This document shows positions 8,254 to 31,312 of a stretch of DNA of 64,000 nucleotides, one piece after another (positions within the stretch are counted from its first letter, which is position 1; the number at the start of each line of letters is the position of its first letter). The stretch lies in the NCBI RefSeq assembly GCF_044324875.1, contig NZ_CP172185.1; one strand, given 5' to 3'. The position numbers and the translations under genes are program-made. The notes beneath the pieces are model-generated. The model was not told where the DNA came from, did no database searches, and saw only the letters and a program-made list of their open reading frames with translations. The stretch comes from Escherichia coli. Lineage in GTDB: Bacteria > Pseudomonadota > Gammaproteobacteria > Enterobacterales > Enterobacteriaceae.

Positions 8254-8409
8254 CGAATATCCCGGGAGTGAGGGGATAATATACCTTTTAACAAAATCCG
8301 GGAACATGAAACGCCCGGAACGTTTCATGAGGCATGCCCCGTGGGGAGCAGGGCATAACTGTGCGGAATAGCTTTCATTGTGATATCAATAATCACGGTA
8401 TTCAAAATA

Positions 8410-8787: not shown

Positions 8788-8910
8788 TTCTGAAGCCTCA
8801 TCTGTTGTCGTTTGGTTTTCCTGAACGGGTATGTTTATGAGACATGCTGGTACTGGATTATATACCTGATATATCCAGGATTATAAACCTTTAGATCCTG
8901 ATAAATATAC

Positions 8911-11838: not shown

Positions 11839-12387
11839 GTGAGGGTTAACAAGAAAAAGCTGGCTGAGATTTTTGATGTTGATGTGCGGACTATATCCAC
11901 CTGGCAAAATCAGGGGCTGCCGCTGATATCAGGCGGCGGGAAAGGGAATGAAGCGATTTTTGATACGGGAAAAGCGATTGAGTGGTTCGCTCAGCGTGAG
12001 GCCGACATTGAAAATGAAAAACTTCGTAAGGAAGTCGACGATATGCGCGTGGCTGCTGAGTCGGATCTGCAGCCCGGTACGATTGATTACGAACGCTACC
12101 GTCTCACAAAAGCACAGGCAGATGCGCAGGAACTGAAAAATGCTCGTGAGGAAGGGCTGGTTCTTGAAACGGAATTATTTACCTACATTTTTCAGCGAGT
12201 TGCGCAGAATATATCCGGGATCCTTGTTCGTGTTCCGCAGACACTGCAGCGTAAATACCCTGATATATCACCAGCACATCTTGATGCTGTGAAAACTGAA
12301 ATCGCGAAAGCATCCGATGTGGCTTCTGAATCAGGTGAGAATGTGTGCAGGTGGATTGATGATTTCAGACGAGCTGAGGGCGGCTAA
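11839..12387 (+). CDS. nu1: Terminase small subunit (lambda Nu1-like)
   Basis: [41 protein letters not shown] closely parallels lambda Nu1 N-terminus; GTG start. Confidence 0.85.
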
Positions 12388-14287
12388 CTCTACAGGAGCG
12401 ATAACGACTGGTCTCCTTGCGCTAAAAATTCCTGTACCCCTGACGACAGTTCAGTGGGCAGATCAACATTATTACCTGCCGAAAGAGTCGTCTTACACAC
12501 CAGGGCGGTGGGAAACATTGCCGTTTCAGGTTGCCATAATGAACAGTATGGGTAATGACCTGATCCGCACTGTTAATCTGATTAAATCTGCCCGTGTTGG
12601 TTATACAAAAATGCTGTTGGGAGTGGAGGCTTATTTTATTGAGCATAAATCCCGCAACAGTCTGCTTTTTCAGCCCACGGACTCAGCTGCTGAAGATTTT
12701 ATGAAATCTCATGTTGAGCCAACGATAAGGGATGTTCCTGCATTGCTGGAGCTGGCTCCATGGTTCGGAAGAAAACACCGCGATAATACGCTCACCCTGA
12801 AGCGTTTTTCCTCCGGTGTGGGGTTCTGGTGTCTGGGTGGTGCGGCAGCAAAAAATTACCGTGAAAAATCCGTGGATGTGGTCTGTTATGACGAGCTTTC
12901 CTCGTTCGAACCGGATGTTGAAAAAGAGGGCTCGCCAACCCTGCTGGGGGATAAGCGTATTGAGGGCTCTGTATGGCCAAAATCCATTCGCGGCTCGACG
13001 CCTAAAATCAAAGGCTCCTGCCAGATCGAAAAAGCCGCTAACGAGTCGGCACATTTCATGCGTTTTTATGTGCCCTGCCCGCACTGTGGGGAGGAGCAGT
13101 ATCTGAAATTTGGTGATGATGCCTCGCCTTTCGGTCTTAAGTGGGAGAAGGACAGCCCCGAAAGCGTTTTCTACCTTTGTGAGCATCATGGCTGTGTGAT
13201 CCATCAGTCTGAGCTTGACCAGAGTAACGGGCGGTGGATCTGTGAAAACACGGGGATGTGGACCCGTGACGGCCTGATGTTTTTCAGCGCCCGGGGTGAT
13301 GAAATTCCGCCGCCGCGCTCCATCACTTTCCATATCTGGACGGCGTACAGTCCGTTCACCACCTGGGTACAGATAGTCTATGACTGGCTGGATGCACTGA
13401 AAGATCCCAACGGCCTGAAAACCTTTGTGAACACCACGCTGGGCGAGACCTGGGAAGAGGCCGTGGGCGAAAAACTCGATCACCAGGTACTGATGGATAA
13501 GGTTGTGCGTTACACGGCGGCGGTGCCTGCCCGGGTGGTTTATCTGACGGCGGGCATTGACTCGCAGCGAAACCGTTTTGAGATGTATGTCTGGGGATGG
13601 GCTCCGGGAGAGGAAGCCTTTCTGGTGGATAAAATCATTATTATGGGGCGTCCCGATGAGGAAGAGACGCTGTTACGTGTGGATGCAGCGATCAACAAAA
13701 AATACTGCCATGCAGACGGAACCGAAATGACCATTTCCCGTGTCTGCTGGGACATCGGGGGGATCGATGGAGAAATCGTTTATCAGAGGTCAAAAAAACA
13801 CGGTGTTTTCCGGGTGCTGCCGGTAAAAGGCGCATCTGTCTATGGCAAGCCGGTGATCACCATGCCAAAAACCCGCAATCAGCGGGGCGTGTATCTGTGT
13901 GAAGTGGGCACGGACACCGCAAAAGAAATTCTCTATGCCCGTATGAAAGCCGCTCCCACGCCTGCGGATGAATCCACGTCGTATGCCATCCGTTTTCCTG
14001 ATGATCCGGAGATTTTTTCGCAGACAGAGGCGCAGCAACTGGTCGCGGAAGAGCTTGTGGAGAAGTGGGAAAAAGGAAAGATGCGTCTGCTGTGGGATAA
14101 CAAAAAGCGGCGTAACGAAGCGCTGGACTGCCTGGTGTATGCCTACGCGGCATTACGTGTGTCCGTGCAACGCTGGCAGCTTGATCTGGCTGTACTGGCA
14201 AAATCCCGGGAAGAAGAGACGACCCGGCCAACCCTTAAAGAACTGGCAGCGAAGCTGTCCGGAGGAGTGAATGGTTACAGTCGCTGA
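12359..14287 (+). CDS. A: Terminase large subunit (lambda gpA-like)
   Basis: Collinear with lambda A ([39 protein letters not shown]); start chosen by alignment (ORF track begins 12317). Confidence 0.9.
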
Positions 14288-14477
14288 ACTGCAGGCGCTG
14301 CGTCAGGCGCGCCTTGATTTATTAACCGGTAAACGGGTGGTGTCTGTCCAGAAAGATGGTCGCAGAATTGAATATACGGCGGCTTCTCTGGATGAGCTTA
14401 ACCGGGCGATCAATGATGCGGAGTCGGTACTGGGGACAACCCGACGTCGCCGTCGTCCGCTGGGAGTGAGGTTATGA
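14271..14477 (+). CDS. W: Head-tail joining protein (lambda gpW-like)
   Basis: 68 aa; LTGKRVVSVQKDGRRIEYT resembles lambda W. Confidence 0.85.
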   Translation: MVTVAELQALRQARLDLLTGKRVVSVQKDGRRIEYTAASLDELNRAINDAESVLGTTRRRRRPLGVRL

Positions 14478-16066
14478 AAAGAACGCCTGTCCTGATTGAT
14501 GTGAACGGCGTTCCGCTTCGTGAGAGTCTCAGCTACAACGGGGGCGGCGCAGGATTTGGCGGGCAAATGGCGGAGTGGTTGCCACCGGCGCAGAGTGTCG
14601 ATGCGGCCCTGCTGCCCGCGTTGCGTCTGGGGAATGCCCGGGCAGATGATCTGGTGCGCAATAACGGAATAGCGGCTAATGCGGTGGCCCTGCATAAGGA
14701 TCACATAGTCGGGCATATGTTTCTGATCAGCTACCGTCCGAACTGGCGCTGGCTGGGGATGCGGGAGACCGCAGCAAAAAGCTTTGTCGATGAGGTGGAG
14801 GCGGCCTGGTCGGAATACGCCGAAGGGATGTCTGGCGAGATCGACGTGGAAGGAAAACGCACGTTCACGGAATTTATCCGGGAAGGCGTGGGCGTTCATG
14901 CGTTTAACGGCGAAATCTTTGTGCAGCCGGTCTGGGATGCGGAGACTACGCAGCTGTTTCGTACGCGTTTTAAAGCCGTGAGTCCGAAACGGGTGGACAC
15001 GCCTGGACACGGTATGGGGAACCGCTTTCTGCGGGCCGGGGTGGAGGTCGATCGGCATGGACGGGCCGTTGCGTACCATATCTGTGAGGATGATTTTCCG
15101 CTCTCTGGTAGTGGACGATGGGAACGGATCCCGCGTGAACTTCCCACCGGGCGTCCGGCCATGCTGCATATTTTCGAGCCGGTTGAGGACGGGCAGACCC
15201 GTGGGGCTAATCAGTTTTACAGCGTCATGGAACGGCTGAAAATGCTCGATTCCCTGCAGGCAACACAGCTTCAGTCAGCCATAGTGAAGGCGATGTATGC
15301 AGCGACGATTGAAAGTGAACTTGATACCGAAAAGGCCTTTGAATATATCGCCGGTGCGCCGGAGGGGCAGAAGGATAATCCGCTTATTAATATTCTGGAG
15401 AAGTTCTCCAGCTGGTATGACACGAATAACGTGACACTGGGCGGTGTCAAAATTCCGCACCTTTTCCCCGGTGATGATCTGAAACTACAGACTGCGCAGG
15501 ATTCAGACAATGGATTTTCTGCGCTTGAACAGGCGCTGCTGCGGTATATCGCCGCCGGTCTTGGCGTTTCCTACGAACAGTTGTCCCGTGATTACTCGAA
15601 GGTCAGTTATTCAAGTGCCCGCGCCTCCGCCAATGAGTCGTGGCGCTATTTTATGGGGCGGCGAAAATTTATTGCGGCCCGGCTGGCCACGCAGATGTTT
15701 TCCTGCTGGCTGGAAGAGGCTCTTCTGCGGGGGATTATTCGTCCGCCACGGGCGCGTTTTGATTTTTATCAGGCGCGTTCATCCTGGTCACGGGCAGAGT
15801 GGATTGGAGCCGGAAGAATGGCCATTGACGGGCTCAAGGAGGTCCAGGAATCGGTGATGCGCATTGAGGCCGGACTGAGCACGTATGAGAAAGAGCTGGC
15901 GCTGATGGGTGAGGATTATCAGGACATTTTCCGCCAGCAGGTCAGGGAATCTGCAGAGCGGGAAAAAGCCGGACTCTCACGTCCGGTGTGGATAGCGCAG
16001 GCGTATCAGCAGCAGATAGCGGCGAGTCGCAGGCCGGAAGAGGAGACAACACCACGTGAGACGTAA
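14474..16066 (+). CDS. B: Portal protein (lambda gpB-like)
   Basis: 530 aa; position and size as lambda B. Confidence 0.9.
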   Translation: MKRTPVLIDVNGVPLRESLSYNGGGAGFGGQMAEWLPPAQSVDAALLPALRLGNARADDLVRNNGIAANAVALHKDHIVGHMFLISYRPNWRWLGMRETAAKSFVDEVEAAWSEYAEGMSGEIDVEGKRTFTEFIREGVGVHAFNGEIFVQPVWDAETTQLFRTRFKAVSPKRVDTPGHGMGNRFLRAGVEVDRHGRAVAYHICEDDFPLSGSGRWERIPRELPTGRPAMLHIFEPVEDGQTRGANQFYSVMERLKMLDSLQATQLQSAIVKAMYAATIESELDTEKAFEYIAGAPEGQKDNPLINILEKFSSWYDTNNVTLGGVKIPHLFPGDDLKLQTAQDSDNGFSALEQALLRYIAAGLGVSYEQLSRDYSKVSYSSARASANESWRYFMGRRKFIAARLATQMFSCWLEEALLRGIIRPPRARFDFYQARSSWSRAEWIGAGRMAIDGLKEVQESVMRIEAGLSTYEKELALMGEDYQDIFRQQVRESAEREKAGLSRPVWIAQAYQQQIAASRRPEEETTPRET

Positions 16067-17561
16067 TCTTTCACACATTATTGCCGCAGCATTCAATGAA
16101 CCGCTGCTTCTGGAGCCCGCCTATGCGCGGGTTTTCTTTTGCGCGCTCGGGCGCGAGATGGGGGCAGCAAGTCTTTCGGTACCACAACAGCAGGTACAGC
16201 TTGATGCTCCCGGAATGCTGGCTGAAACGGACGAGTACATGGCCGGAGGTAAACGACCGGCCCGTGTTTACCGGGTGGTGAACGGTATTGCTGTACTGCC
16301 GGTGACCGGCATGCTGGTGCACCGGCTGGGTGGTATGCGGCCATTTTCCGGAATGACAGGCTATGACGGCATTGTCGCCTGTCTTCAGCAGGCAATGGCG
16401 GACACCGCTGTCCGGGGCGTACTGCTGGACATTGACAGTCCGGGCGGGCAGGCCGCAGGCGCGTTTGACTGTGCTGACATGATTTACCGCCTCCGTCAGC
16501 AGAAGCCGGTCTGGGCACTGTGCAATGACACGGCCTGTTCTGCAGCCATGCTGCTGGCGTCGGCCTGCTCCCGACGGCTGGTTACCCAGACATCCCGTAT
16601 CGGCTCCATTGGCGTGATGATGAGCCATCTCAGCTATGCCGGTCATCTGGCGCAGGCCGGTGTGGATATCACGCTGATTTATGCCGGGGCGCACAAGGTG
16701 GATGGCAATCAGTTTGAAGCCTTACCGGAAGAGGTGCGTCAGGACATGCAGCAGCGCATTGATGCGGCACACCGGATGTTTGCCGAAAAAGTGGCGATGT
16801 ATACCGGGCTGTCTGTGGATGTGGTCACGGGAACAGAGGCCGCCGTTTTTGAAGGTCAGTCCGGCATTGAGGCCGGGCTGGCGGATGAATTAGTCAATGC
16901 GTCGGATGCCATCAGTGTGATGACCACGGCGCTGTACACACATGATACAGGAGGCACTATGCCGCAATTAACTGCAACGGAAGCCGCCGTGCAGGAGAAC
17001 CAGCGAGTGATGGGGATCCTGACGAGTAAGGAAGCGAAAGGACGTGAACAGCTTGCCACGATGCTGGCGGGACAACAGGGCATGAGCGTTGAACAGGCCC
17101 GGGAGATCCTGGCCGCGGCGGCACCACAGCAGCCGGTGGCATCCGCGCAGAGTGAAGCCGATCGCATTATGGCGTGTGAAGAGGCGAAAGGTCGTGAACA
17201 ACTGGCGGCAACGCTGGCGGCGATGCCGGAGATGACGGTGGAAAAAGCCCGCCCGATCCTGGCAGCTTCACCGCAGGCGGATGCCGGACCATCACTCCGT
17301 GATCAGATCATGGCCCTGGATGAGGCAAAAGGGGCTGAGGCGCAGGCTGAACAGCTGGCTGCCTGCCCGGGAATGACCGTGGAGAACGCCCGGGCTGTGC
17401 TGGCTGCGGGGTCAGGTAAGGCAGAACCGGTCTCTGCATCCACAACCGCCATGTTTGAACATTTCATGGCGAACCATTCACCGGCAGCGGTACAGGGTGG
17501 CGTGCCACAGACGTCAGCAGACGGTGATGCGGACGTGAAAATGCTCATGGCCATGCCATGA
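16056..17561 (+). CDS. C: Head maturation protease/scaffold (lambda gpC/Nu3-like, S49 family) with C-terminal tandem repeats
   Basis: 501 aa; ClpP/S49-like N-terminal half; C-terminus has three repeats EAKGREQLA...ILAA. Confidence 0.85.
   Translation: MRRNLSHIIAAAFNEPLLLEPAYARVFFCALGREMGAASLSVPQQQVQLDAPGMLAETDEYMAGGKRPARVYRVVNGIAVLPVTGMLVHRLGGMRPFSGMTGYDGIVACLQQAMADTAVRGVLLDIDSPGGQAAGAFDCADMIYRLRQQKPVWALCNDTACSAAMLLASACSRRLVTQTSRIGSIGVMMSHLSYAGHLAQAGVDITLIYAGAHKVDGNQFEALPEEVRQDMQQRIDAAHRMFAEKVAMYTGLSVDVVTGTEAAVFEGQSGIEAGLADELVNASDAISVMTTALYTHDTGGTMPQLTATEAAVQENQRVMGILTSKEAKGREQLATMLAGQQGMSVEQAREILAAAAPQQPVASAQSEADRIMACEEAKGREQLAATLAAMPEMTVEKARPILAASPQADAGPSLRDQIMALDEAKGAEAQAEQLAACPGMTVENARAVLAAGSGKAEPVSASTTAMFEHFMANHSPAAVQGGVPQTSADGDADVKMLMAMP
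17031..17420 (+). repeat. Three in-frame tandem repeats (about 147 nt) in C/Nu3 C-terminus
   Basis: Repeated peptide units EAKGREQLATMLAGQQGMSVEQAREILAAAAP / EAKGREQLAATLAAMPEMTVEKARPILAASPQ / EAKGAEAQAEQLAACPGMTVENARAVLAAGSG. Confidence 0.7.
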
Positions 17562-17597
17562 AGTCAGTGCTGACCATCAATATGAGGTTTTGACAAT

Positions 17598-17945
17598 ATG
17601 GTGACGAAAACCATCACTGAACAGCGTGCGGAAGTACGTATTTTTGCCGGTAATGATCCGGCTCACACCGCCACAGGCAGCAGCGGGATTTCCTCGGCAA
17701 CACCGGCACTGACGCCCCTGATGCTGGATGAAGCCACCGGGAAACTGGTGGTCTGGGACGGACAGAAAGCCGGAGGTGCGGTTGGCATACTGGTACTGCC
17801 GCTTGAAGGCACAGAGACGGTGCTGACGTATTACAAGTCGGGGACTTTTGCGACGGAGGCAATCCGCTGGCCTGACAGTGTGGATGAACACAAAAAGGCC
17901 AACGCCTTTGCCGGGAGTGCCCTGAGTCACGCGGCGCTGCCGTAA
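17598..17945 (+). CDS. D: Head decoration protein (lambda gpD-like)
   Basis: 115 aa; NDPAHTATGSSGISSATPALTPLMLD parallels lambda D. Confidence 0.85.
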   Translation: MVTKTITEQRAEVRIFAGNDPAHTATGSSGISSATPALTPLMLDEATGKLVVWDGQKAGGAVGILVLPLEGTETVLTYYKSGTFATEAIRWPDSVDEHKKANAFAGSALSHAALP

Positions 17946-18002
17946 CACGTTATCAGGCCACCGCGGTGGCCTGACTGATTTCAGAATGAAAGGAACTGAT
18001 TT

Positions 18003-19031
18003 ATGGGATTGTTTACGACCCGCCAGTTACTCGGTTATACCGAACAAAAAGTGAAATTTCGTGCGCTGTTTCTGGAGCTGTTTTTCCGCCGTACGGTGAA
18101 TTTCCATACCGAAGAGGTGATGCTGGACAAAATTACCGGAAAAACGCCGGTGGCGGCCTATGTCTCCCCGGTTGTTGAAGGAAAAGTGCTGCGTCATCGT
18201 GGTGGTGAAACCCGCGTCTTGCGTCCGGGCTACGTCAAGCCGAAACACGAATTTAATTCCCGGCAGGCGGTTGAGCGCCTTCCTGGTGAAGATCCGGCTC
18301 AACTGAACGATCCGGCTTACCGCCGTCTGCGTATCATTACCGATAACCTCAAACAGGAAGAGCACGCGATTGTCCAGGTGGAAGAAATGCAGGCGGTAAA
18401 TGCCGTGCTGTATGGCAAATACACCATGGAAGGAGACCAGTTCGAGAAAATTGAGGTCGATTTTGGCAGATCGCCGGCGAATAACATTACGCAGGCCAGT
18501 GGTAAAAAATGGTCTGAGCACGATCGTGACACGTTCGATCCTGCGCATGATATTGACCTCTACTGCGACCAGGCCAGCGGCCTTGTGAATATTGCCATTA
18601 TGGACGGTACCGTCTGGCGTCTGCTGAATGGTTTTAAGCTGTTCCGCGAAAAACTGGATACCCGTCGCGGTTCAAATTCGCAACTCGAAACGGCAGTGAA
18701 AGACCTGGGGGCGGTGGTGTCTTTCAAAGGGTATTACGGTGATCTGGCCATTGTGGTGGCGAAAACGTCTTATGTGGCAGAGGACGGTACCGAAAAACGT
18801 TATCTGCCAGACGGCACGCTGGTCCTGGGGAATACTGCTGCAGATGGGATCCGTTGTTACGGTGCCATTCAGGATGCACAGGCGTTGTCTGAAGGAGTGG
18901 TGGCCTCTTCCCGTTATCCGAAACACTGGCTGACGGTGGGGGATCCCGGCCGTGAATTTACCATGACGCAGTCCGCGCCGCTGATGGTGTTGCCGGACCC
19001 GGATGAGTTTGTGGTGGTACAGGTGAAATAA
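18003..19031 (+). CDS. E: Major capsid protein (lambda gpE-like)
   Basis: 342 aa; position and size as lambda E. Confidence 0.9.
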   Translation: MGLFTTRQLLGYTEQKVKFRALFLELFFRRTVNFHTEEVMLDKITGKTPVAAYVSPVVEGKVLRHRGGETRVLRPGYVKPKHEFNSRQAVERLPGEDPAQLNDPAYRRLRIITDNLKQEEHAIVQVEEMQAVNAVLYGKYTMEGDQFEKIEVDFGRSPANNITQASGKKWSEHDRDTFDPAHDIDLYCDQASGLVNIAIMDGTVWRLLNGFKLFREKLDTRRGSNSQLETAVKDLGAVVSFKGYYGDLAIVVAKTSYVAEDGTEKRYLPDGTLVLGNTAADGIRCYGAIQDAQALSEGVVASSRYPKHWLTVGDPGREFTMTQSAPLMVLPDPDEFVVVQVK

Positions 19032-19082
19032 TCCGTGAGCGGGGGCGAAATGCCCCCGTGTCTTTTTTCACAGGGGGCTGAT

Positions 19083-19445
19083 ATGGCAACGAAAGAGCAA
19101 AATCTGAAACGGCTTGATGAACTGGCCCGGATTCTGGGGCGTGAGCCGGATATATCCGGGAGTGCCGCAGAGATAGCGCAGCGGGTGGCGGAATGGGAAG
19201 AGGAAGCAGAGGACAAAAACCAGGAGAGTGATGAGAACGAAAGGCATTTGATGACGTATAGCTACTCCACTGGCGGGGATGAAATGAGCACTGTTCGTGT
19301 ACTCAAAACCCTGCATGTGGCGGGAAAACATCCGCATGATGACAGTGATATGGAGATTGTTGTTACAGGTATGACTGTCAGAGTTGATCCAGTGAATGTT
19401 GCGGAACTTGTCCTGGAGGGGCTTGTTACAGATGAAAGTTATTAA
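19083..19445 (+). CDS. DNA-packaging protein FI-like
   Basis: Position between E and FII; acidic middle region; ATG 19083 chosen over upstream starts. Confidence 0.5.
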   Translation: MATKEQNLKRLDELARILGREPDISGSAAEIAQRVAEWEEEAEDKNQESDENERHLMTYSYSTGGDEMSTVRVLKTLHVAGKHPHDDSDMEIVVTGMTVRVDPVNVAELVLEGLVTDESY

Positions 19446-19794
19446 TATCAGGGATAACGGTTTTGATACAGCCATTGCCCGGGCTGATGAAACGATACGC
19501 GGGCATATGGGAACGTCAGCCACCATTACATCCGGTGAGCAGCCCGGCGCAGTAATACGTGGTGTTTTTGATGACCCTGAAAATATCAGCTATGCCGGAC
19601 AGGGCGTGCGCGTTGAAGGCTCCAGCCCGTCCCTGTTTGTCCGGACTGATGATGTGCGGCAACTGCGGCGTGGAGACACGCTGACCATCGGTGAGGAAAA
19701 CTTCTGGATAGACCGGGTTTCGCCGGATGATGGCGGAAGCTGTCATCTGTGGCTGGAGCGGGGAGCGCCGCCTGCCACGGCGCGCCGACGCTGA
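19432..19794 (+). CDS. FII: Head-tail connector (lambda gpFII-like)
   Basis: TAIARADETIRGHMGTSATITSGEQPGAVIRGVFDDPENISYAGQGVRVEGSSPSLFVRTDDVRQLRRGDTLTIGEENFW nearly identical to recalled lambda FII. Confidence 0.85.
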   Translation: MKVINIRDNGFDTAIARADETIRGHMGTSATITSGEQPGAVIRGVFDDPENISYAGQGVRVEGSSPSLFVRTDDVRQLRRGDTLTIGEENFWIDRVSPDDGGSCHLWLERGAPPATARRR

Positions 19795-20114
19795 GGGAGT
19801 GAGTATGTATATCCGGGGTATGGAAAATGCCATTGAAAACCTGAGCCGTATTAACCGCAGTGCGGTACCCGGTGCGGCGGCGATGGCCTTAAACCGGCTG
19901 GGTTCTGCAGTCACTGCGCAATCGGCATCACAGGTATCCCGTGAGGTCAAAATCCCACGGAAATTTGTCCGTGAAAGGATGAAGCTAAAAAAGGCCACAC
20001 CAAAAAATCAGTCTGTCCGGATCTAGACTGGCCCCCTGAATCTCCAGACAACCAGTATCACTTAAATAAGTGATAGTCTTAATACTAGTTTTTAGACTAG
20101 TCATTGGAGAACAG

Positions 20115-20480
20115 ATGATTGATGTCTTAGGGCCGGAGAAACGCAGACGGCGTACCACACAGGAAAAGATCGCAATTGTTCAGCAGAGCTTTGAACCGGG
20201 GATGACGGTCTCCCTCGTTGCCCGGCAACATGGTGTAGCAGCCAGCCAGTTATTTCTCTGGCGTAAGCAATACCAGGAAGGAAGTCTTACTGCTGTCGCC
20301 GCCGGAGAACAGGTTGTTCCTGCCTCTGAACTTGCTGCCGCCATGAAGCAGATTAAAGAACTCCAGCGCCTGCTCGGCAAGAAAACGATGGAAAATGAAC
20401 TCCTCAAAGAAGCCGTTGAATATGGACGGGCAAAAAAGTGGATAGCGCACGCGCCCTTATTGCCCGGGGATGGGGAGTAA
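20115..20480 (+). CDS. insC: IS2 transposase OrfA (InsC)
   Basis: [26 protein letters not shown]... recognised as IS2 InsC. Confidence 0.85.
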
Positions 20481-21343
20481 GCTTAGTCAGCCGTTGTCTC
20501 CGGGTGTCGCGTGCGCAGTTGCACGTCATTCTCAGACGAACCGATGACTGGATGGATGGCCGCCGCAGTCGTCACACTGATGATACGGATGTGCTTCTCC
20601 GTATACACCATGTTATCGGAGAGCTGCCAACGTATGGTTATCGTCGGGTATGGGCGCTGCTTCGCAGACAGGCAGAACTTGATGGTATGCCTGCGATCAA
20701 TGCCAAACGTGTTTACCGGATCATGCGCCAGAATGCGCTGTTGCTTGAGCGAAAACCTGCTGTACCGCCATCGAAACGGGCACATACAGGCAGAGTGGCT
20801 GTGAAAGAAAGTAATCAGCGATGGTGCTCTGACGGGTTCGAGTTCCGCTGTGATAACGGAGAAAAACTGCGAGTCACGTTCGCGCTGGACTGCTGTGACC
20901 GTGAGGCACTGCACTGGGCGGTCACTACGGGCGGCTTCAACAGTGAAACAGTACAGGACGTCATGCTGGGAGCGGTGGAACGCCGCTTCGGCAACGAGCT
21001 TCCGGCGTCTCCAGTAGAGTGGCTGACGGATAATGGTTCATGCTACCGGGCTAATGAAACACGGCAGTTTGCCCGGATGTTGGGGCTTGAACCGAAGAGC
21101 ACGGCGGTGCGGAGTCCGGAGAGTAACGGCATAGCAGAGAGCTTCGTGAAAACGATAAAGCGTGACTACATCAGTGTCATGCCCAAACCAGACGGGTTAA
21201 CGGCAGCAAAGAACCTTGCAGAGGCGTTCGAGCATTATAACGAATGGCATCCGCATAGTGCACTGGGTTATCGCTCGCCACGGGAATATCTACGGCAGCA
21301 AGCCAGTAATGGGTTAAGTGATAACAGGTGTCTGGAAATATAG
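20438..21343 (+). CDS. insD: IS2 transposase OrfB (InsD), expressed by -1 frameshift from OrfA
   Basis: 301-aa ORF with integrase-core-like region; overlaps insC in -1 frame. Confidence 0.85.
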
Positions 21344-21718
21344 GGGCAAATCCAGGATCGTGGTTAACCGGGGCGATTTTCCGGTGATCAAACTGGGTAA
21401 CGCCAGACTGCGACTGTCCAGGCGTAAACGTCGTCGAAAGGGCGAGCGTTCAGCCGAGAAAGGCGGAGGAAGTGTTCTTGTCGTGGGGAACCGCCGTATT
21501 CCGGGGGCTTTTATCCAGAGACTTAAAAACGGTCGCTGGCATGTTATGCAGCGGGAAGCAGGCCGAAATCGTTATCCTATTGATGTGGTGAAAATACCGA
21601 TGCAGGCTCCGCTGACGTCAGGGGTGCAGGAGAATATCACACGGTTGTACAGGGATAAGTTTCCCGCAGAACTGGCTGCCGCACTGAAACAGAAGATACG
21701 AATGGAGGTGAAAAAGCG

Positions 21719-22114
21719 ATGAAGCATACTGATATCCGCAATGCCGTGCTGAATGCGCTGGAGGAGACTACCGAGGGTGTGACGCTGTATGACGGACTGC
21801 CCGCCGTTATCGAAGACGGGGATTTTCCGGTTATTGCCGTTTATATCACGGATGCTGCATATACAGGTGAGGTGCTTGATGCGGATACGTGGGAGGCCAC
21901 TCTGCATATTAATCTGTTTCTTCCGGTCCAGGTTCCTGATGCTGAACTGGATGACTGGATGGAAAAACGCATTTATCCGGCGATTGAAAATATCCCCGCT
22001 CTGGCCGGACTGATAACCACCATGGTACCGCAGGGCTATGATTACCAGCGTGATCAGGACATGGGGTCATGGAGTGCGGCAGATCTGACTTATACCATTA
22101 CATACGATATGTGA
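21719..22114 (+). CDS. U: Minor tail protein U (lambda gpU-like)
   Basis: 131 aa; MKHTDIRNAVLNALEE...DLTYTITYDM parallels lambda U. Confidence 0.85.
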   Translation: MKHTDIRNAVLNALEETTEGVTLYDGLPAVIEDGDFPVIAVYITDAAYTGEVLDADTWEATLHINLFLPVQVPDAELDDWMEKRIYPAIENIPALAGLITTMVPQGYDYQRDQDMGSWSAADLTYTITYDM

Positions 22115-22123
22115 GGCTGAATA

Positions 22124-22861
22124 ATGACAACACCGAATCCGGCAGCACCGGTAAAAGGTGCAGGAACCACGCTCTGGGTATACACCGGAAAAGGGGATCC
22201 GTATGCGAATCCACTGTCCGATGTTGACTGGGAGCGTCTGGCAAAAGTGAAGGATCTGGCTCCCGGTGATATGACCGCTGAGTATTATGATGATAATTAT
22301 CTTGATGACGACGATGCGGACTGGGTTTCCACAGGGCAGGGGCAGAAGTCAGCAGGAGATACCAGTTTTACGCTGGCATGGAAACCCGGCGAAAACGGGC
22401 AGCGAGGGTTACTGGCATGGTTCGATCAGGGGGATGTTCGTGCCTATAAAATCCGCTTTCCGAACGGCACGGTGGATGTTTTTCGTGGCTGGGTGAGCAG
22501 TATTGGCAAAGCGATTACTGCAAAGGATGTTATCACGCGTACTGTAAAAGTGACCAATGTCGGACGTCCGTCTCTGGCGGAAGATCAGGGCAGTGTTACG
22601 GCGCTCACCGGTATTACCCTGACACCATCCACTCATACCTTGGCGAAGAACAGCACTGTGGATCTGACCGTGGCACTCCAGCCTGCGCGGGCTACCGATA
22701 AAACTTTCCGTGCCATTTCCACCGACACATCAAAAGCGACGATCAGCGTTAATGATATGACCATCACAGTGAAGGGCATCGCTGCGGGTAAATCGCAGAT
22801 CCTGGCCATCAGTGGTGACGGTCAGTTTGCGGCTGTCGCAGAAATCAATGTTACGGGCTGA
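22124..22861 (+). CDS. V: Major tail protein V with C-terminal Ig-like domain
   Basis: 245 aa; position and size as lambda V. Confidence 0.9.
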
Positions 22862-22896
22862 TATCAGGCCTTTCTGCTTTTTCCGGAGTTTTACCG

Positions 22897-23301
22897 ATGT
22901 TTCTCAAAAATGAACCGTTTGAATATAACGGGCAGTCCGTCACGCTCACGGAACTGTCAGCCCTGCAGCGTATCAGCCACCTTGCCTTCCTGAAAGCGCG
23001 TGAAGAGGCTGAGGGGGGTGATGATATACAGGTGGCACTGGATGACACTATCCGGGAGGGGGCATACCTTGTGGCTATGTCACTGTGGCATACCCATCCT
23101 GTAAAGGGGACGCTGGGATCGCCGGAAGACGAAGAACGACAACTGATGAATGAGGTATTGCAGAGATGGCCGGTGGAGGCCATCTCTGCAGCATTCAGTC
23201 GTGTCATTGTTCTGTCGGGAATGGTGACCCCGGTACGGACCGCGCCGGAAGAGGAGGAGACTGAAGCGGTGACGGCGGGAAAGCCTTCGACAGTGAACTG
23301 A
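22897..23301 (+). CDS. G: Tail assembly chaperone G
   Basis: MFLKNEPFEYNGQSVTLTELSALQRISHLAF parallels lambda G. Confidence 0.8.
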   Translation: MFLKNEPFEYNGQSVTLTELSALQRISHLAFLKAREEAEGGDDIQVALDDTIREGAYLVAMSLWHTHPVKGTLGSPEDEERQLMNEVLQRWPVEAISAAFSRVIVLSGMVTPVRTAPEEEETEAVTAGKPSTVN

Positions 23302-23729
23302 ATTTTGTCCTGAGACTGGCGCGTGAGATGGGAAGACCCGACTGGCGCGCCATGCTGGCGGATATGTCATCAACGGAATATGCCGACTGGCATCAGTTTT
23401 ACCGTACGCATTATTTTCATGATGTGCTGCTGGATCAGCATTTTGCTGGGCTGACGTATACCGTGCTCAGCCTGTTTTTCAGCGATCCGGATATGCATCC
23501 GCTGGATTTCAGTCTGCTGAACCGGCGTGAGGCTGACGAAGAGCCTGAAGATGACGTGCTGATGCAGAAAGCAGCAGGGCTTGCCGGAGGGGTTCGTTTT
23601 GACCCTGCGGGGAATAAAGTCATCTGCATTGCCTCTGATGTGGAGGATATGACGGGGGATGGTGTCATGCTGATGACGATATCGGAAGGTATAGCAGGAG
23701 GTAGACGGTATGGCTCAACCGGTCAGTGA
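22897..23729 (+). CDS. Tail assembly chaperone G-T fusion via programmed -1 frameshift
   Basis: Slippery heptamer G GGA AAG at 23277-23283 in G frame; the -1 frame is open from there to 23729. Confidence 0.6.
23277..23283 (+). promoter_or_regulatory. Programmed -1 ribosomal frameshift slippery site GGGAAAG
   Basis: Same heptamer and frame register as the lambda G/GT site. Confidence 0.6.
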
Positions 23730-25077
23730 TCTTGTCGTTGATATGACGCTGGATGCCACCCGGTTCAGCGAACAGATCAAAAAGGTCAGGCAGCATTTTC
23801 AGCAGGTGGACAGTGATGCAGGAAAAACGGCTGTTGCTGTTGAGCAATCCATGTCCCGGCAGGCGGAAGCTGCCCGCCGTGCCGGGATATCCATCGGTCA
23901 GTATAAGGCTGCGATGCGCACTCTGCCCGCGCAGTTTACTGATATCGCCACGCAACTGGCCGGTGGTCAGAGTCCATGGCTGATCCTGTTGCAGCAGGGC
24001 GGTCAGGTGAAGGACTCCTTCGGCGGACTGATCCCCATGTTCCGGGGACTTGCGGGGGCCGTTTCGTTACCAGCTGTCGGGGTGGGGGCTTTGGCTGCAG
24101 CGACAGGAGCGCTGGCGTATGCCTGGTACCAGGGTGACTCAATCCTGTCTGATTTCAGTAAAACGCTCGTATTGTCCGGTAATCAGGCAGGACTGACGGC
24201 AGATCGTATGCTGGCCCTGTCCAGAGCCGGGCAGGCAGCAGGGCTGACGTTTAACCAGACCAGCGAATCACTCAGTGCACTGGTTAAGGCGGGGGTACGC
24301 GGTGAGGCTCAGATTGCATCCATCAGCCAGAGTGTGGCGCGTTTCTCCTCTGCATCCGGCGTGGAGGTGGACAGGGTCGCTGAAGCCTTCGGGAAGCTGA
24401 CCTCTGACCCGACATCGGGGCTGACGGCGATGGCGCGCCAGTTCCATAACGTGACGGCGGAGCAGATTGCGTATGTTGCTCAGTTGCAGCGTTCCGGCGA
24501 TGAAGCAGGGGCATTGCAGGCGGCAAACGAGGCCGCAACGAAAGGGTTTGATGACCAGACCCGTCGACTGAAAGAGAACATGGGCACACTGGAGACCTGG
24601 GCAGACAAAACTGCCGGAGCGTTCAGAAGCATGTGGGACGCTATTCTGGATATTGGTCGCCCGGAGTCCTCTGCTGACATACTGGATAAGGCGCAGAAAG
24701 CCTTTGATGAAGCAGATAAAAAATGGCAGTGGTATCAGAGCCGCAGTCACCGACGGGGTAAAACATCTTCATTTCGTGCGAATCTTCAGGGCGCGTGGGA
24801 TGACAGAGTAAATGCGCAACTGGGGCTTTCAGCGGCCACACTGCAGGCTGATCTTGAAAAAGCCAGTGAGATGGCTGCAAAATGGCATCTGAATCGATCG
24901 CAGTTTGGCATTCGAATCGATCATGATTTGGCATCCATCTCCGATCACAGTTTGGCATCACAATCGATCACGATTTGGCATGCTTCCGATCATTGATTGG
25001 CATCCTGCCAGTCACTCCGGGAATTAACTCTTTTCACCACAGTCTCCATTGCCGTGTTTAAACCAGTGGAGACGTCA

Positions 25078-26643
25078 ATGTCCAGAAAGAGAAAATCCAG
25101 GAGCACTATGGAAACCTGTTTTAAGATCCTTCAGCTCAAGTTCGACAAGAAGCTGACTAACCGTTGTATCGGACTGACGTTACACATCAGCGCCTCAACC
25201 GTTTTTGAGGTTCTTGCCCGCTTCAAAGCCTCTTCTCTGTCATGGCCATTACCTGCTGATATATCCCATGACACGCTGGAGAAACTCATTTTTCCGCCCA
25301 AAGACACCTTTGCATCAGAGCTTGTAATGCCTGACATGTTGTACTTCGATACGGAAATGAGAAAACCAGGTGTGACGCGGCAACTGTTGTGGATGGAATA
25401 CAAGGCACAGGCGGGTAACAAAGCGATGGGATACTCGCACTTCTGCCGTTGCTACCGGGAGTGGAAAAAAACGCGACGTCTCTCCATGCGCCAGGAGCAT
25501 CGTGCCGGCGAAAAGCTTTTTATCGACTTCTGTGGTCCTACGGTTCCTGTTATTAATCCGGACACCGGTGAGATACGCCGCGTGGCAATCTTCGTGGCCG
25601 TAATGGGGGCGTCCAACTATACCTACGTTGAAGCGTGCGAAGGTCAGGACATGATGTCATGGTTAAATGCCCACAGCCGTTGCCTGACCTTCCTGGGCGG
25701 CGTACCGAAGCTGCTCATCCCCGATAACCTCAGAAGCGCAGTGAAAAAGGCCGATCGATATGAGCCTGTCATCAACGACAGTTATCAGGCACTGGCTGAG
25801 CACTATGGCACGGTTATCATCCCGGCCCGACCACGCAAACCTAAAGATAAACCAAAAGCAGAAAACGGCGTCCTCATCGTTGAACGATGGCTTCTTGCCC
25901 GCATCCGTAATGAAACCTTCCACACGCTCAGGGCGCTGAATGCGCGCCTTAGGGAGTTACTGACAGACATGAATAACCGGCCAATGAAGGGGTACGGCAA
26001 TCAAACCCGTGCAGAACGCTTCCGCATACTGGATGCGCCAGCACTCTCTCCGCTGCCTCTGGCACCTTATGAATACACGGAATACAAAGCTGTGAAGGTT
26101 GGCCCTGACTACCACGTTGAATATGCCCGTCACTGGTACTCCGTTCCACACGAACTGGTCGGTCAGCGTCTGTCACTGAAGGCGGGGCAGTCGGTGGTAC
26201 AGCTCTGGCACAAGGGGCAGTGTGTGGCGCAACATCCGCGCAGCACACATGAATATAAACACACAACCAATCCGCTTCACATGCCAGAGCGCCACCGGCA
26301 GCACGGGACATGGACACCGGAACGCCTGATCGAGCAGGGAAAACGTACGGGCCCGTCCACAGGCCGGGTGGTTGAATCCATGCTGAAGGCAAAACCCCAT
26401 CCGGAACTGGCTTATCGTGCAGTTCTGGGGCTGCTGGCACTTCAGAAAAAATACGGCCCGGAACGGCTGGAAAAGGCCTGTTACGTTGCCCTGCACTATA
26501 ACGCCCCTGACAGACGCTTTATCGACAATCTGCTGCGTCACCATCGGGAGAACCTGGAGCTTCCATTATCCCGCCAGGGCGAACAACATCCGGCATATGC
26601 TTCAGAGCATGAAAACCTGCGTGGTCCGGGCTACTACCACTGA
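25078..26643 (+). CDS. istA: IS21-family transposase IstA
   Basis: N-terminal HTH-like region then integrase-core-like region; start uncertain (25078 or 25108). Confidence 0.8.
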   Translation: MSRKRKSRSTMETCFKILQLKFDKKLTNRCIGLTLHISASTVFEVLARFKASSLSWPLPADISHDTLEKLIFPPKDTFASELVMPDMLYFDTEMRKPGVTRQLLWMEYKAQAGNKAMGYSHFCRCYREWKKTRRLSMRQEHRAGEKLFIDFCGPTVPVINPDTGEIRRVAIFVAVMGASNYTYVEACEGQDMMSWLNAHSRCLTFLGGVPKLLIPDNLRSAVKKADRYEPVINDSYQALAEHYGTVIIPARPRKPKDKPKAENGVLIVERWLLARIRNETFHTLRALNARLRELLTDMNNRPMKGYGNQTRAERFRILDAPALSPLPLAPYEYTEYKAVKVGPDYHVEYARHWYSVPHELVGQRLSLKAGQSVVQLWHKGQCVAQHPRSTHEYKHTTNPLHMPERHRQHGTWTPERLIEQGKRTGPSTGRVVESMLKAKPHPELAYRAVLGLLALQKKYGPERLEKACYVALHYNAPDRRFIDNLLRHHRENLELPLSRQGEQHPAYASEHENLRGPGYYH

Positions 26644-26659
26644 CAGAAGGAACAACAGT

Positions 26660-27415
26660 ATGAGTGATAACCTGTTAAACAAACTGACCCAACTGAAACT
26701 CCCGGCGATGGCCGGGAGCCTGATACGGCAGCGGGAAACGCCTCAGACCTACGACGAACTGTCGTTCGAGGAAAGGCTGACGCTGCTGGTTGATGACGAG
26801 CTTCTGAGCAGGGAAAACAGCCGTGTGGCACGGTTGAGAAAAAATGCCGGCCTGAAATACCAGGCAACACCGGAAGGGCTGCGCTATCCGGCCTCAAGAG
26901 GTCTGCGGGCTGAACAGATGAGAGAACTGCTGAACGGCCACTACATAACCCACAGGAAAAACCTGCTGATAACCGGTCCGACAGGATGTGGCAAGAGCTG
27001 GATAGCCAATGCGCTGGGCGAACAGGCATGTCGACAGAAACACAGCGTCCGGTACTGTAGAACCGGGCGATTACTGGAACAACTGGCTCAGGGACGTGTT
27101 GATGGCAGCTGGCTGAAATATCTGAAACAGTTGCAAAAAATACAGGTTCTAATCCTGGACGATCTGGGGCTGGAACAGTTAAGTAACGCCCAGTGTAATG
27201 ACCTTCTGGAGCTCATAGAGGATCGTTACGGACAAAGCAGCACGATAGTGGTAAGCCAGTTCCCGGTAGATAAATGGCATGGTCTGATGGAGAACCCAAC
27301 AACAGCAGATGCCATCCTGGACAGACTGGTACATAACTCACACCGAGTGGTCCTTCAGGGAGAGTCACTGAGGAAAAATCCCCCGGTAGTGGAAAGCAGC
27401 GAAAAAACGCGTTAA
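26660..27415 (+). CDS. istB: IS21-family helper ATPase IstB
   Basis: Walker A GPTGCGKS, Walker B LILDDLG; 251 aa. Confidence 0.85.
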   Translation: MSDNLLNKLTQLKLPAMAGSLIRQRETPQTYDELSFEERLTLLVDDELLSRENSRVARLRKNAGLKYQATPEGLRYPASRGLRAEQMRELLNGHYITHRKNLLITGPTGCGKSWIANALGEQACRQKHSVRYCRTGRLLEQLAQGRVDGSWLKYLKQLQKIQVLILDDLGLEQLSNAQCNDLLELIEDRYGQSSTIVVSQFPVDKWHGLMENPTTADAILDRLVHNSHRVVLQGESLRKNPPVVESSEKTR

Positions 27416-28931
27416 AAAGCGGTAGAAAAAGTTAAGTTCCCGGTTGATCGAATGGATGCGAATCGCTGATCGGACTTCGATGCCAATCCGTGATCGAATA
27501 GAGCGGAATACGCAAGATGGCTGCAAAAGATCGTGCCGAATCAGAGGCTTCACGACTCAGGTACACTGAAGAGGCGCAGAAGGCTTACGAACGGCTGCAG
27601 ACACCGCTGGAAAAATATACCGCCCGTCAGGAAGAACTGAACAAGGCACTGAAAGACGGGAAAATCCTGCAGGCAGATTACAACACGCTGATGGCGGCGG
27701 CGAAAAAGGATTATGAAGCGACGCTGAAAAAGCCGAAACAGTCCGGCGTGAAGGTGTCTGCGGGCGATCGTCAGGAAGACAGTGCTCATGCTGCCCTGCT
27801 GACGCTTCAGGCTGAACTCCGGACGCTGGAGAAGCATGCCGGAGCAAATGAGAAAATCAGCCAGCAGCGCCGGGATTTGTGGAAGGCGGAGAGTCAGTTC
27901 GCGGTACTGGAGGAGGCGGCGCAACGTCGCCAGCTGTCTGCACAGGAGAAATCCCTGCTGGCGCATAAAGATGAGACGCTGGAGTACAAACGCCAGCTGG
28001 CGGAACTTGGCGATAAGATTGAACACCAGAAACGGCTGAACGAACTGGTACAGCAGGCGGAGAAATTCGCACAGCAGCAACGGGCAAAACGGGCCGCCAT
28101 TGATGCGAAAAGCCGGGGACTGACTGACCGGCAGGCAGCGCGGGAAGCCACGGAACAGCGCCTGAAGGAACAGTATGGCGATAATCCGCTGGCGCTGAAT
28201 AACGTCATGTCAGAGCAGAAAAAGACCTGGGCGGCTGAAGACCTGCTTCGCGGGAGCTGGATGGCAGGCCTGAAGTCCGGCTGGAGTGAGTGGGAAGAGA
28301 GCGCCACGGACAGTATGTCGCAGGTTAAAAGTGCTGCCACGCAGACCTTTGATGGTATTGCGCAGAATATGGCGGCGATGCTGACCGGCAGTGAACAGAA
28401 CTGGCGCAGCTTCACCCGCTCCGTGCTGTCCATGATGACAGAAATTCTGGTTAAGCAGGCAATGGTGGGGATTGTCGGGAGTATCGGCAGCGTCATTGGC
28501 GGTGCTGCCGGTGGTGGCGCATCAGTGTCAGGCGGTACAGCCATTCAGGCCGCTGCGGCAAAATTCCATTTTGCGACCGGGGGATTTACGGGAACCGGCG
28601 GCAAATATGAGCCAGCGGGGATTGTTCACCGTGGTGAATTTGTCTTCACGAAGGAGGCAACCAGCCGGATTGGTGTCGGCAACCTGTACCGCCTGATGCG
28701 GGGCTATGCGGAAGGTGGTTATGTGGGCGGTGCCGGAAGTCCGGCGCAGATGCGGCGGGCTGAAGGCATTAATTTTAATCAGAACAATCACGTGGTGATT
28801 CAGAACGACGGTACGAATGGTCTGCCAGGTCCACAGATGATGAAGGCAGTGTATGACATGGCCCGCAAGGGTGCCCGTGATGAAATTCAGGCACAGATGC
28901 GCGATGGTGGTCTGTTCTCCGGAGGTGGACG

Positions 28932-29261
28932 ATGAAAACCTTCCGCTGGAAAGTGAAACCCGGTATGGATGTGGCTTCGGCCCCTTCTGTAAGAAAGGTG
29001 CGCTTTGGTGATGGCTATTCCCAGCGAGCGCCTGCCGGGCTGAATGCCAACCTGAAAACGTACAGCGTGACGCTTTCTGTTCCCCGTTGGGAGGCCACGG
29101 CGCTGGAGTCGTTTCTGGCTGAGCACGGGGGCTGGAAGGCCTTTCTGTGGACGCCGCCTTATGAGTGGCGGCAGATAAAGGTGACCTGCGCAAAATGGTC
29201 GTCGCGGGTCAGTATGCTGCGTGTTGAGTTCAGCGCAGAGTTTGAACAGGTGGTGAACTGA
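28932..29261 (+). CDS. M: Minor tail protein M
   Basis: 109 aa; MKTFRWKVKPGMDVASAPSVRKVRFGDGYSQRAPAGLNANLKTYSVTL nearly identical to recalled lambda M. Confidence 0.9.
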   Translation: MKTFRWKVKPGMDVASAPSVRKVRFGDGYSQRAPAGLNANLKTYSVTLSVPRWEATALESFLAEHGGWKAFLWTPPYEWRQIKVTCAKWSSRVSMLRVEFSAEFEQVVN

Positions 29262-29959
29262 TGCAGGATATCCGGCAGGAAACACTGAATGAATGCACCC
29301 GTGCGGAGCAGTCGGCCAGCGTGGTGCTCTGGGAAATCGATCTGACAGAGGTCGGTGGCGAACGTTATTTTTTCTGTAATGAGCAGAACGAAAAAGGTGA
29401 GCCGGTCACCTGGCAGGAGCGGCAGTATCAGCCGTATCCCATTCAGGGGAGTGGTTTTGAACTGAATGGCAAAGGTACCAGTACGCGCCCCACGCTGACG
29501 GTTTCTAACCTGTACGGTATGGTCACCGGTATGGTGGAAGATATGCAGAGTCTGGTCGGCGGAACGGTGGTCCGGCGTAAAGTTTATGCCCGTTTTCTGG
29601 ATGCGGTGAACTTCGTCAACGGAAACCGTGACGCCGATCCGGAGCAGGAGGTGATCAGCCGCTGGCGCATCGAGCAGTGCAGTGATTTGACAGCGGTCAG
29701 CGCGACCTTTGTACTGGCCACGCCGACGGAAACGGACGGCGCTGTTTTTCCGGGACGTATTATGCTGGCCAACACCTGCACCTGGACCTATCGCGGCGAT
29801 GAGTGCGGTTATAGCGGTCCGGCGGTCGCGGATGAATATGACCAGCCGACGTCCGATATCACGAAGGATAAATGCAGCAAATGCCTGAGTGGCTGTAAGT
29901 TCCGCAATAACGTCGGCAACTTTGGCGGTTTTCTTTCCATTCACAAACTTTCGCAGTAA
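29261..29959 (+). CDS. L: Minor tail protein L
   Basis: 232 aa, same size as lambda L; Cys cluster CTWTYRGDECGYSG. Confidence 0.9.
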   Translation: MQDIRQETLNECTRAEQSASVVLWEIDLTEVGGERYFFCNEQNEKGEPVTWQERQYQPYPIQGSGFELNGKGTSTRPTLTVSNLYGMVTGMVEDMQSLVGGTVVRRKVYARFLDAVNFVNGNRDADPEQEVISRWRIEQCSDLTAVSATFVLATPTETDGAVFPGRIMLANTCTWTYRGDECGYSGPAVADEYDQPTSDITKDKCSKCLSGCKFRNNVGNFGGFLSIHKLSQ

Positions 29960-29963
29960 TTCC

Positions 29964-30707
29964 ATGACAGAGACAGAATCAGCGATTCTGGCGCACGCCC
30001 GGCGATGTGCGCCAGCGGAGTCGTGCGGCTTCGTGGTGAGAGCGCCGGAGGGGGAAAGATATTTCCCCTGCGTGAATATCTCCGGTGAGCCGGAGGCGTA
30101 TTTCCGGATGTCGCCGGAGGACTGGCTGCAGGCAGAGATGCAGGGTGAGATTGTGGCACTGGTCCACAGTCACCCCGGTGGTCTGCCCTGGCTGAGTTAG
30201 GCCGACCGGCGGCTGCAGGTGCAGAGTGATTTGCCGTGGTGGCTGGTCTGCCGGGGGGCGATTCACAAGTTCCGCTGTGTGCCGCATCTCACCGGGCGGT
30301 GCTTTGAGCACGGGGTGACGGACTGTTACACGCTGTTCCGGGATGCTTACCATCTGGCGGGAATTGAGATGCCGGATTTTCATCGCGGGGATGACTGGTG
30401 GCGTAACGGTCAGAATCTCTATCTTGACAATATGGAGGCGACTGGTTTTTACCGTGTCGCACTGACAGAGGCGCAGCCCGGCGACGTGCTGCTGTGCTGT
30501 TTTGGTTCATCGGTGCCGAATCATGCCGCCATTTACTGCGGCGACGGCGGGCTGCTGCACCATATTCCTGAACAACTGAGCAAACGAGAGAGGTATACCG
30601 ACAAATGGCAGCGACGCACACACTCCCTCTGGCGTCACCGGGCATGGCACGCATCTGCCTTTACGGGGATTTGCAACGATTTGGCCGCCGCATCGACCTT
30701 CGTGTGA
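29964..30707 (+). pseudogene. K: Tail tip assembly protein K with in-frame amber codon
   Basis: Aligns to lambda K throughout; TAG at 30198-30200 replaces the Glu codon in ...HPGGLPWLS*ADRRLQVQ...; frame continues unchanged after the stop. Confidence 0.8.
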
Positions 30708-31252
30708 AAACGGGAGCCGAAGCCATCCGGGCGCTGGCCACGCAGCTCCCTGCGTTTCGTCAGAAACTGAGCGACGGCTGGTATCAGGTGCGTATTGCCG
30801 GGCGTGATACAGGCGAAAACGAATTATCAGCCCGTCTTAATGAACCGCTGGCAAATGGTGCCGTGATCCACATCGTGCCGCGTCTGGCGGGAGCCAAACG
30901 TGGTGGTGTGTTTCAGGCAGTGCTGGGCGCGGCGCTGATTGCGGTGGCATGGTGGAACCCTGCAGGCTGGCTGGGGGCTGCGGCTTTATCGGGCATGTAT
31001 GCGGCAGGGGCCAGTATGGTGCTCGGTGGTGTGGCGCAGATGCTGGCACCGAAAGCCAAAACCCCCCGCACACAGACAACGGATAACGGCAAACAGAACA
31101 CCTATTTTTCTTCACTGGATAACATGGTTGCCCAGGGGAATGCTCTGCCCGTTCTGTACGGTGAAATGCGCGTGGGGTCACGGGTAATTTCGCAGGAGAT
31201 CAGCACAGCGGATGAGGGGGATGGCGTCCGGGTTGTGGTGATTGGTCGCTGA
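30605..31252 (+). CDS. I: Tail assembly protein I
   Basis: MAATHTLPLASPGMARICLYGDLQRFGRRIDLRVKTGAEAIRALATQ nearly identical to recalled lambda I N-terminus. Confidence 0.85.
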   Translation: MAATHTLPLASPGMARICLYGDLQRFGRRIDLRVKTGAEAIRALATQLPAFRQKLSDGWYQVRIAGRDTGENELSARLNEPLANGAVIHIVPRLAGAKRGGVFQAVLGAALIAVAWWNPAGWLGAAALSGMYAAGASMVLGGVAQMLAPKAKTPRTQTTDNGKQNTYFSSLDNMVAQGNALPVLYGEMRVGSRVISQEISTADEGDGVRVVVIGR

Positions 31253-31312
31253 TGCAAAATGTTTTATGTGAAACCGCCTCCGGGCGGTTTTGTCGTTTAT
31301 GGAGCGTGAGGA

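Follow-up and report, generated by a model that had tools for sequence, protein, structure and literature searches.

A lambda-like prophage of Escherichia coli with recent lesions in the tail genes Z, H and K

Tail genes of the mlrA prophage

The stretch of DNA analyzed here (the window, 64,000 nucleotides (nt) of Escherichia coli contig NZ_CP172185.1, assembly GCF_044324875.1) carries the right two-thirds of a lambda-like (lambdoid) prophage integrated at mlrA (also called yehV), with its late half. Three tail genes of this late region are broken: Z by a copy of the insertion sequence (IS) IS2, the tape-measure gene H by an ISSso4-like element of the IS21 family, and K by a single amber codon. 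As discussed below, we consider that this is very probably a prophage in the first steps of a neutral and stepwise decay, within a genome where IS are active. The features of the broken genes are:

19805–20023, plus strand: 5' fragment of Z (lambda minor tail protein Z), codons 1–73, with a TAG stop provided by the first bases of IS2
20024–21354, plus strand: complete IS2 (IS3 family), 1331 bp
21360–21722, plus strand: 3' fragment of Z, codons 74–193
23710–24875, plus strand: 5' fragment of H (tape measure), codons 1–388 and two bases of codon 389
24876–27514, plus strand: ISSso4-like element of the IS21 family, 2639 bp
25108–26643, plus strand: istA, within the ISSso4-like element
26660–27415, plus strand: istB, within the ISSso4-like element
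27522–28935, plus strand: 3' fragment of H
29964–30707, plus strand: K, tail-tip assembly protein (JAB/MPN and NlpC/P60), 247 codons
30198–30200: TAG at codon 79 of the 247 of K (Glu in the relatives)

The element within Z is a canonical IS2. It has the expected length of ca. 1.33 kb and is flanked by a 5-bp target duplication, GGATC, at 20019–20023 and 21355–21359. Its ends (TAGACTGG...GCAAATCCA) form imperfect inverted arms of 33 nt that are 79% complementary; the left junction with Z reads ...GTCCGGATC/TAGACTGGCCCCC... and the right one ...GGGGCAAATCCA/GGATCGTGG. The two overlapping ORFs that an IS2 should have, TnpA (InsC) and TnpB (InsD, with a DDE domain), are present and full length, with TnpA matching NCBIfam NF006928 at 276 bits (cut-off 229) over 121 of 121 positions and TnpB matching NF006918 at 713 bits (cut-off 597) over 301 of 301. 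When 19805–20023 is joined to 21360–21722 a gene of 582 nt is restored in frame, and the 193 amino acids (aa) that it codes for are the length called for Z in the relatives described in the next section. Pfam PF06763 is recorded on the 73-aa product of the 5' fragment. The empty site is found precisely in seven draft contigs of those relatives (L006–L009, L011, L014 and L015), so that the clean split of Z by IS2 with a GGATC duplication, proposed in a first-pass annotation made from the letters of the window, is confirmed; for the three lesions taken together, the coordinates needed small corrections. A gap of 1 nt against the relatives within 21351–24882 was considered as a possible frameshift and rejected, being an alignment artefact at the IS2 boundary.

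The interruption of H is of the same nature but of a different family. The tandem istA and istB genes, the defined ends, the short duplication and the identity to named copies identify the element as a member of the IS21 family. IstA matches NCBIfam NF033546 with 285 bits (cut-off 160) and IstB NF038214 with 258 bits (cut-off 200). Over its 2639 bp the element is 99.6–99.8% identical to two annotated ISSso4 copies located in two E. coli genomes (L003 and L004). Its boundaries could be placed because the annotated copies share the same ends, TGCAAAATGG...GAATACGCA, found in all in three different flanks; these ends have TG...CA termini and repeated CGATC-N-TTGGCAT motifs. The target duplication, AGATGGC, is 7 bp long and is located at 24869–24875 and 27515–27521; its length is also 7 bp in L004 and 6 bp in L003. 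Joining 23710–24875 to 27522–28935 restores an in-frame H of 2580 nt and 859 aa, and seven contigs (L006–L011 and L014) carry the empty site. The 2.6-kb IS21-family element announced in the first-pass annotation was therefore confirmed by its length, duplication and empty sites. The reading frame of the 5' part of H runs 40 codons into the IS and ends at 24996; a look-up of exact products gave no record for this fusion open reading frame (ORF), nor for J. At the other side, the ATG contained in the duplicated AGATGGC (27517) opens an in-frame ORF of 472 aa (27517–28935) from the 3' part of H, and an identical product is recorded at the terminus of contig L005.

One detail of the H insertion is unusual. 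The 7 nt that follow the duplication, TGCAAAA, are the same as the first 7 nt of the element itself, producing an apparent direct repeat of 14 bp (24869–24882 and 27515–27528). A duplication of 14 bp, AGATGGCTGCAAAA, was accordingly considered and rejected when the two other ISSso4 copies were aligned, which gave 7 bp. This is either a chance match, expected about once in 16,000 at any given position, or a sign of a transposase preference for targets that resemble the ends of the element, and it has no counterpart at the two other ISSso4 copies compared. Apart from this likeness, the element is canonical for ISSso4, with full-length transposase genes and a 7-bp duplication. IS21 matches that seemed linked to tail modules in E700025 and SLK172 were discarded as unrelated insertions located elsewhere in those prophages.

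The third lesion is a point mutation. K reads CTG AGT TAG GCC GAC, the stop being within the HSHPGGLPWLSEAD stretch of the JAB domain (HSHPGGLPWLS-E-AD). All six relatives that cover base 30198 have GAG at this codon, hence the change in the window is G to T, and the single TAG in place of a Glu codon that had been proposed is correct. The K of contig L006 differs from that of the window only at 30198, is called at 247 aa and has Pfam PF14464 and PF00877 recorded on it. In L007, L010 and L011 K is called as 199 aa starting at Met49, and in L008 and L009 it is cut by the end of the contig. Judging from the DNA, which in L007, L010 and L011 differs from that of the window only at 30198, the 199-aa calls are an annotation choice. 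No other record of the amber allele was found, and among the relatives compared it is present only in the window. Products of 78 aa in three assemblies looked like candidates for the same allele but were rejected, being truncations at contig ends that carry or precede the G, not the T. The three lesions are independent, and apart from them each gene keeps its full length and its frame.

Near-identical relatives and the probable order of the lesions

Draft contigs from related prophages (L006–L015) were retrieved by an exact-product look-up with the V protein, for which the assembly collection has entries in 90 blocks; the contigs read are draft assemblies. Eight of them (L006–L011, L014 and L015) were aligned base by base to a healed version of the window, in which both IS and one copy of each target duplication had been removed. 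All eight were colinear with it, without a single indel and with only 1–15 substitutions, which amounts to identities of 99.92–99.99% (99.80% for L014). Z has 193 aa and H 859 aa in the contigs that reach these genes, and neither gene shows any difference between the healed window and L007. Pfam recorded Minor_tail_Z on the 193-aa product, TMP_2 and Tape_meas_lam_C on the 859-aa product and Prok-JAB and NLPC_P60 on the 247-aa product of the relatives. The comparison with related intact prophages that the first-pass annotation called for thus gave intact Z, H and K in near-identical draft contigs. Since the relatives carry true empty sites, the insertions are real and recent. The head and packaging genes are also colinear with those of the near-identical relatives, with no indels and few substitutions.

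Some assemblies share only part of the lesions. In GCA_958430965.1 both Z::IS2 junctions are present (the left one in contig L027 and the right one in L010), with an uninterrupted H and GAG in K. The same left junction was found in two more assemblies (L028 and L029), so that Z::IS2 occurs in at least three other assemblies, where the identical 73-aa product of Z is followed by the TnpA of IS2. Contig L005 (GCA_049006665.1) begins 1 nt past the right end of the ISSso4-like element and, over 3,024 nt, shows a single difference with the window, at 30198 (G/T). On this distribution the lesions are nested in time, not simply parallel, and the most parsimonious order would be IS2, then ISSso4, then the amber codon.

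None of 5,426 complete E. coli RefSeq genomes covers 80% or more of the region. For the segment located between the two IS (21360–24875, from the 3' part of Z to the 5' part of H) these genomes gave no match above ca. 80% identity over most of its length, and the matches of 90–99% were only short pieces; the median number of matching places was 2 per genome with any match. The flanking head genes and the part that goes from the 3' fragment of H to J have matches of 94–100%. The tail module is therefore mosaic, with a central part (Z'-U-V-G-T-H5') at ca. 80% or less between flanks at 94–100%.

Other lesions in the same prophage

Two more lesions were found to the right of J:

38250–40691, minus strand: IS66-family element, 2442 bp, with complete tnpA, tnpB and tnpC, between a DUF4376 gene and the adhesin gene
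41149–42375, plus strand: YadA-anchor (Eib-like) adhesin cargo gene, 408 codons
41926–41928, plus strand: TAA in place of Tyr at codon 260 of the 408 of the adhesin

The IS66-family element is flanked by an 8-bp duplication, GTTTCATG, at 38242–38249 and 40692–40699, and has ends GTAAGCG...CGCTTAC. The DUF4376 gene at its left is tail-fibre-associated. In contig L016 the DUF4376 and adhesin genes have IS2-type transposase genes (products of 121 and 301 aa) between them. Regarding the adhesin, codon 260 is Tyr in a relative that is 98.8% identical (L021). The picture drawn in the first-pass annotation, of a tail module hit with head and lysis genes that look intact, holds but is incomplete, as it had missed these two lesions in the same prophage. 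With them there are five recent lesions, all within the right-hand 47% of the healed 37.3 kb of prophage seen in the window.

Gene content and integration site

The ORFs and a tblastn comparison with a related annotated prophage (L002, from E. coli LH50-c, integrated at mlrA) revealed a lambda-type late region on the plus strand, with the lambda gene order FII-Z-U-V-G-T-H-M-L-K-I-J. The remaining features are:

1–5526: replication genes, RusA and Q
5710–6813, minus strand: porin gene
7412–7565: two tRNAs
7981–9908: holin, endolysin, Rz and Rz1
11839–19794: terminase (Nu1/A-like), W, portal, S49 protease, D, E, FI and FII
19805–34855, plus strand: Z, U, V, G, T, H, M, L, K, I and J
21719–22114, plus strand: U, intact
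22124–22861, plus strand: V, intact
22897–23301, plus strand: G, intact
23283–23729, plus strand: T frame, intact
28932–29261, plus strand: M, intact
29261–29959, plus strand: L, intact
30704–31252, plus strand: I, intact
31313–34855, plus strand: J, intact
3' of J: tail-fibre genes, adhesin, a small regulator and DinI

Set against L002, Q, the porin, RusA and the replication genes all have their full length, and the PHROG profiles of the holin, endolysin, Rz and Rz1 matched end to end. The retention of Q, porin, lysis, terminase and capsid genes, already read from the window alone, is thus corroborated by the full-length profiles, by L002 and by the relatives. The U-V-G-T stretch (21719–23729) shows no differences with L007, and the slippery site GGGAAAG of G/T is kept. 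In the 3' part of J (34007–34332) there are two units of ca. 152 nt, 174 nt apart and 92% identical, in which an 11-residue peptide is duplicated too. The substitutions that separate the relatives cluster in these repeats, suggesting exchange between them. The two tRNAs were called as Met(CAT) and Lys(TTT); the tRNAs located there in L002, the related mlrA prophage, are Ile, Arg and Thr. No amber-suppressor tRNA (anticodon CUA) was found in the window, where CAT and TTT are the only anticodons.

Homology to the E. coli chromosome restarts at ca. 43739, within mlrA and adjoining btsS (match to E. coli C4), and strain LH50-c also has a related prophage at mlrA. Because of these two observations we place the integration in mlrA. 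The gene is interrupted at ca. 43739, and only its btsS-proximal end adjoins the right end of the prophage. We take mlrA to be a curli and biofilm regulator gene, and its interruption may affect the phenotype of the host whatever the state of the prophage, an effect that may outweigh that of the tail lesions.

Interpretation of the tail lesions

Lambda needs H and K to assemble its tails, and Z for the tails to be infectious. By analogy, any one of the three lesions should be enough to keep the prophage from producing infectious particles with its own genes, and it would be unable to make infectious virions or functional tails by itself. What we have found is an integrated phage genome (with its mlrA junction) in which three tail genes are disrupted, which would make it a defective prophage. 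The sequence of events that we propose would start with the transposition of an IS2 copy into Z. The break of Z would have relaxed selection on the other tail genes and further hits could then accumulate, with an ISSso4-like element transposing into the tape-measure gene H and, later, a G-to-T change turning Glu79 of K into an amber codon. The IS66-family insertion and the nonsense codon of the adhesin agree better with relaxed selection and IS that are active in general than with a targeting specific to the tail. The intactness of the head and lysis genes would reflect too little time to decay and does not speak for selection, because the sister copies, mostly 99.9% or more identical, are fully intact. 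Besides, the tail-less state is confined to a few isolates and the K amber step is private to the source genome. The first-pass annotation had described the element as domesticated or decaying; recent lesions and intact relatives speak for decay, and domestication finds no support since the tail-less state is not conserved. There is no indication either of a use of the remnant by the host.

Some points weigh against this interpretation. The presumed presence of H::ISSso4 in GCA_049006665.1 is deduced from a contig break: the start of L005 is what an assembler gives when breaking at a repeat. The integrase and repressor side of the prophage is beyond the edge of the window, the early region not being part of this sequence. 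The clustering of the five lesions at the right side has P of ca. 0.02 under uniform hits, in a test chosen post hoc, and it might point to a left half kept by purifying selection, although as a lead this is weak. Finally, the TAG of K may not be real. If the T at 30198 were a sequencing or consensus error of the source assembly there would be two real lesions instead of three; what makes one think of it is that the difference is a single base, with G in all six relatives and L005 identical over the rest of its 3,024 nt, and that the truncated K is found in no other record. However, substitution errors are rare in finished assemblies, and the TAA of the adhesin and other private single nucleotide polymorphisms fit real mutations under relaxed selection, so that we consider an artefact improbable.

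A different explanation is that the host lineage has been selected to keep a tail-less element still competent for lysis and packaging, be it for release of cargo or toxin, for tail-less DNA-filled heads or for a lysis that benefits kin. The tail lesions would then be adaptive, or tolerated by design at the least. Three of the five recent lesions are in tail genes and none in the replication, Q, lysis or head genes, and all five fall in the right-hand part, with the post hoc value given above. Against it, relatives that are 99.80–99.99% identical have intact Z, H and K, which makes the state very young and not conserved, and only the window has the K amber. Rather than being conserved across a clade, Z::IS2 is found in few assemblies and the K amber in no other. 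Loss of the tail gives the carrier cell no protection from induction, for which decay in lysis, Q or replication genes would be expected instead; the cargo adhesin has itself been knocked out; and the known hallmarks of domestication (loss of replication or excision genes, host regulation, conservation across strains) do not appear. We regard such a domestication as very improbable. A related proposal, that the tail loss was selected and the element parasitises the tails of co-resident lambdoid prophages or works for the host as a module for lysis or the release of DNA, would explain why the five lesions spare the left half, and seems to us just as far-fetched. Less remote, though still unlikely, is that the prophage is dependent and not dead. 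Lambda heads and tails assemble separately and are joined afterwards, and co-resident lambdoid prophages might provide in trans either Z, H and K or complete tails, in which case the lesions would have little effect on transmission. The genes for packaging, for the head and for its joining to the tail are all intact (terminase, W, portal, protease, D, E, FI and FII), and E. coli genomes typically have several related tail modules, as the median of 2 matching places indicates. There is also a precedent in the defective lambdoid prophages of strain Sakai, which are packaged and in some cases transferred by means of other prophages (PMC2669165). On the other hand, a single prophage is visible in the window, and with a segment from Z' to H that is at most ca. 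80% identical to the tails of the 5,426 complete genomes, the fit of a foreign tail with the FII/U interface is uncertain. A recent neutral decay therefore remains our preferred explanation.

Comparison with known systems

What we describe is an ordinary prophage decay, of an already known kind (lambdoid prophages damaged by IS and mutations, at mlrA/yehV and elsewhere, are well documented), and IS2, ISSso4, Z, H and K are all ordinary. It is only mildly notable, for the exceptionally clean dating of the three steps and for the identity between TGCAAAA and the terminus of ISSso4. It provides a clean and datable example of the stepwise immobilisation of a lambdoid prophage, by IS2, an IS21-family element and a nonsense codon, with sister copies (mostly at 99.9% identity or more) as controls, and the lineage of the host clone could be traced with the lesion junctions as markers. 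Beyond annotation its significance is small and no new mechanism is opened.

In E. coli O157 Sakai, insertions of IS, frameshifts and deletions are common in the morphogenesis genes of the lambdoid prophages, and defective ones are packaged, and some of them transferred, by complementation from co-resident prophages (PMC2669165). The prophage studied here resembles the Sp prophages of O157:H7 Sakai and other cryptic lambdoid prophages of E. coli and Shigella in having a lambda-type late operon with other modules intact and morphogenesis genes broken, which in those prophages is due to IS insertions, frameshifts and nonsense mutations. It also resembles known lambdoid prophages in its use of mlrA/yehV as integration site (PMC2669165). 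It differs from them in three respects: the window shows no stx or type III secretion system effector genes, near-identical intact copies allow the lesions to be dated as very recent, and the part from Z' to H is without a relative above ca. 80% over most of its length in the complete E. coli RefSeq genomes. The genes hit, for the tail-completion protein Z, the tape measure H and the tail-tip assembly protein K, are the same three known from the conditional-lethal (amber) mutants of lambda, and the lesion in K is literally an amber. However, these are natural lesions of a prophage, two of them insertional, and their phenotypes are predicted from lambda genetics. Gene transfer agents and tailocins are similar in having only some of their structural modules in working order, but they are conserved and regulated by the host, and tailocins keep the tails and lose the heads, the reverse of the state found here.

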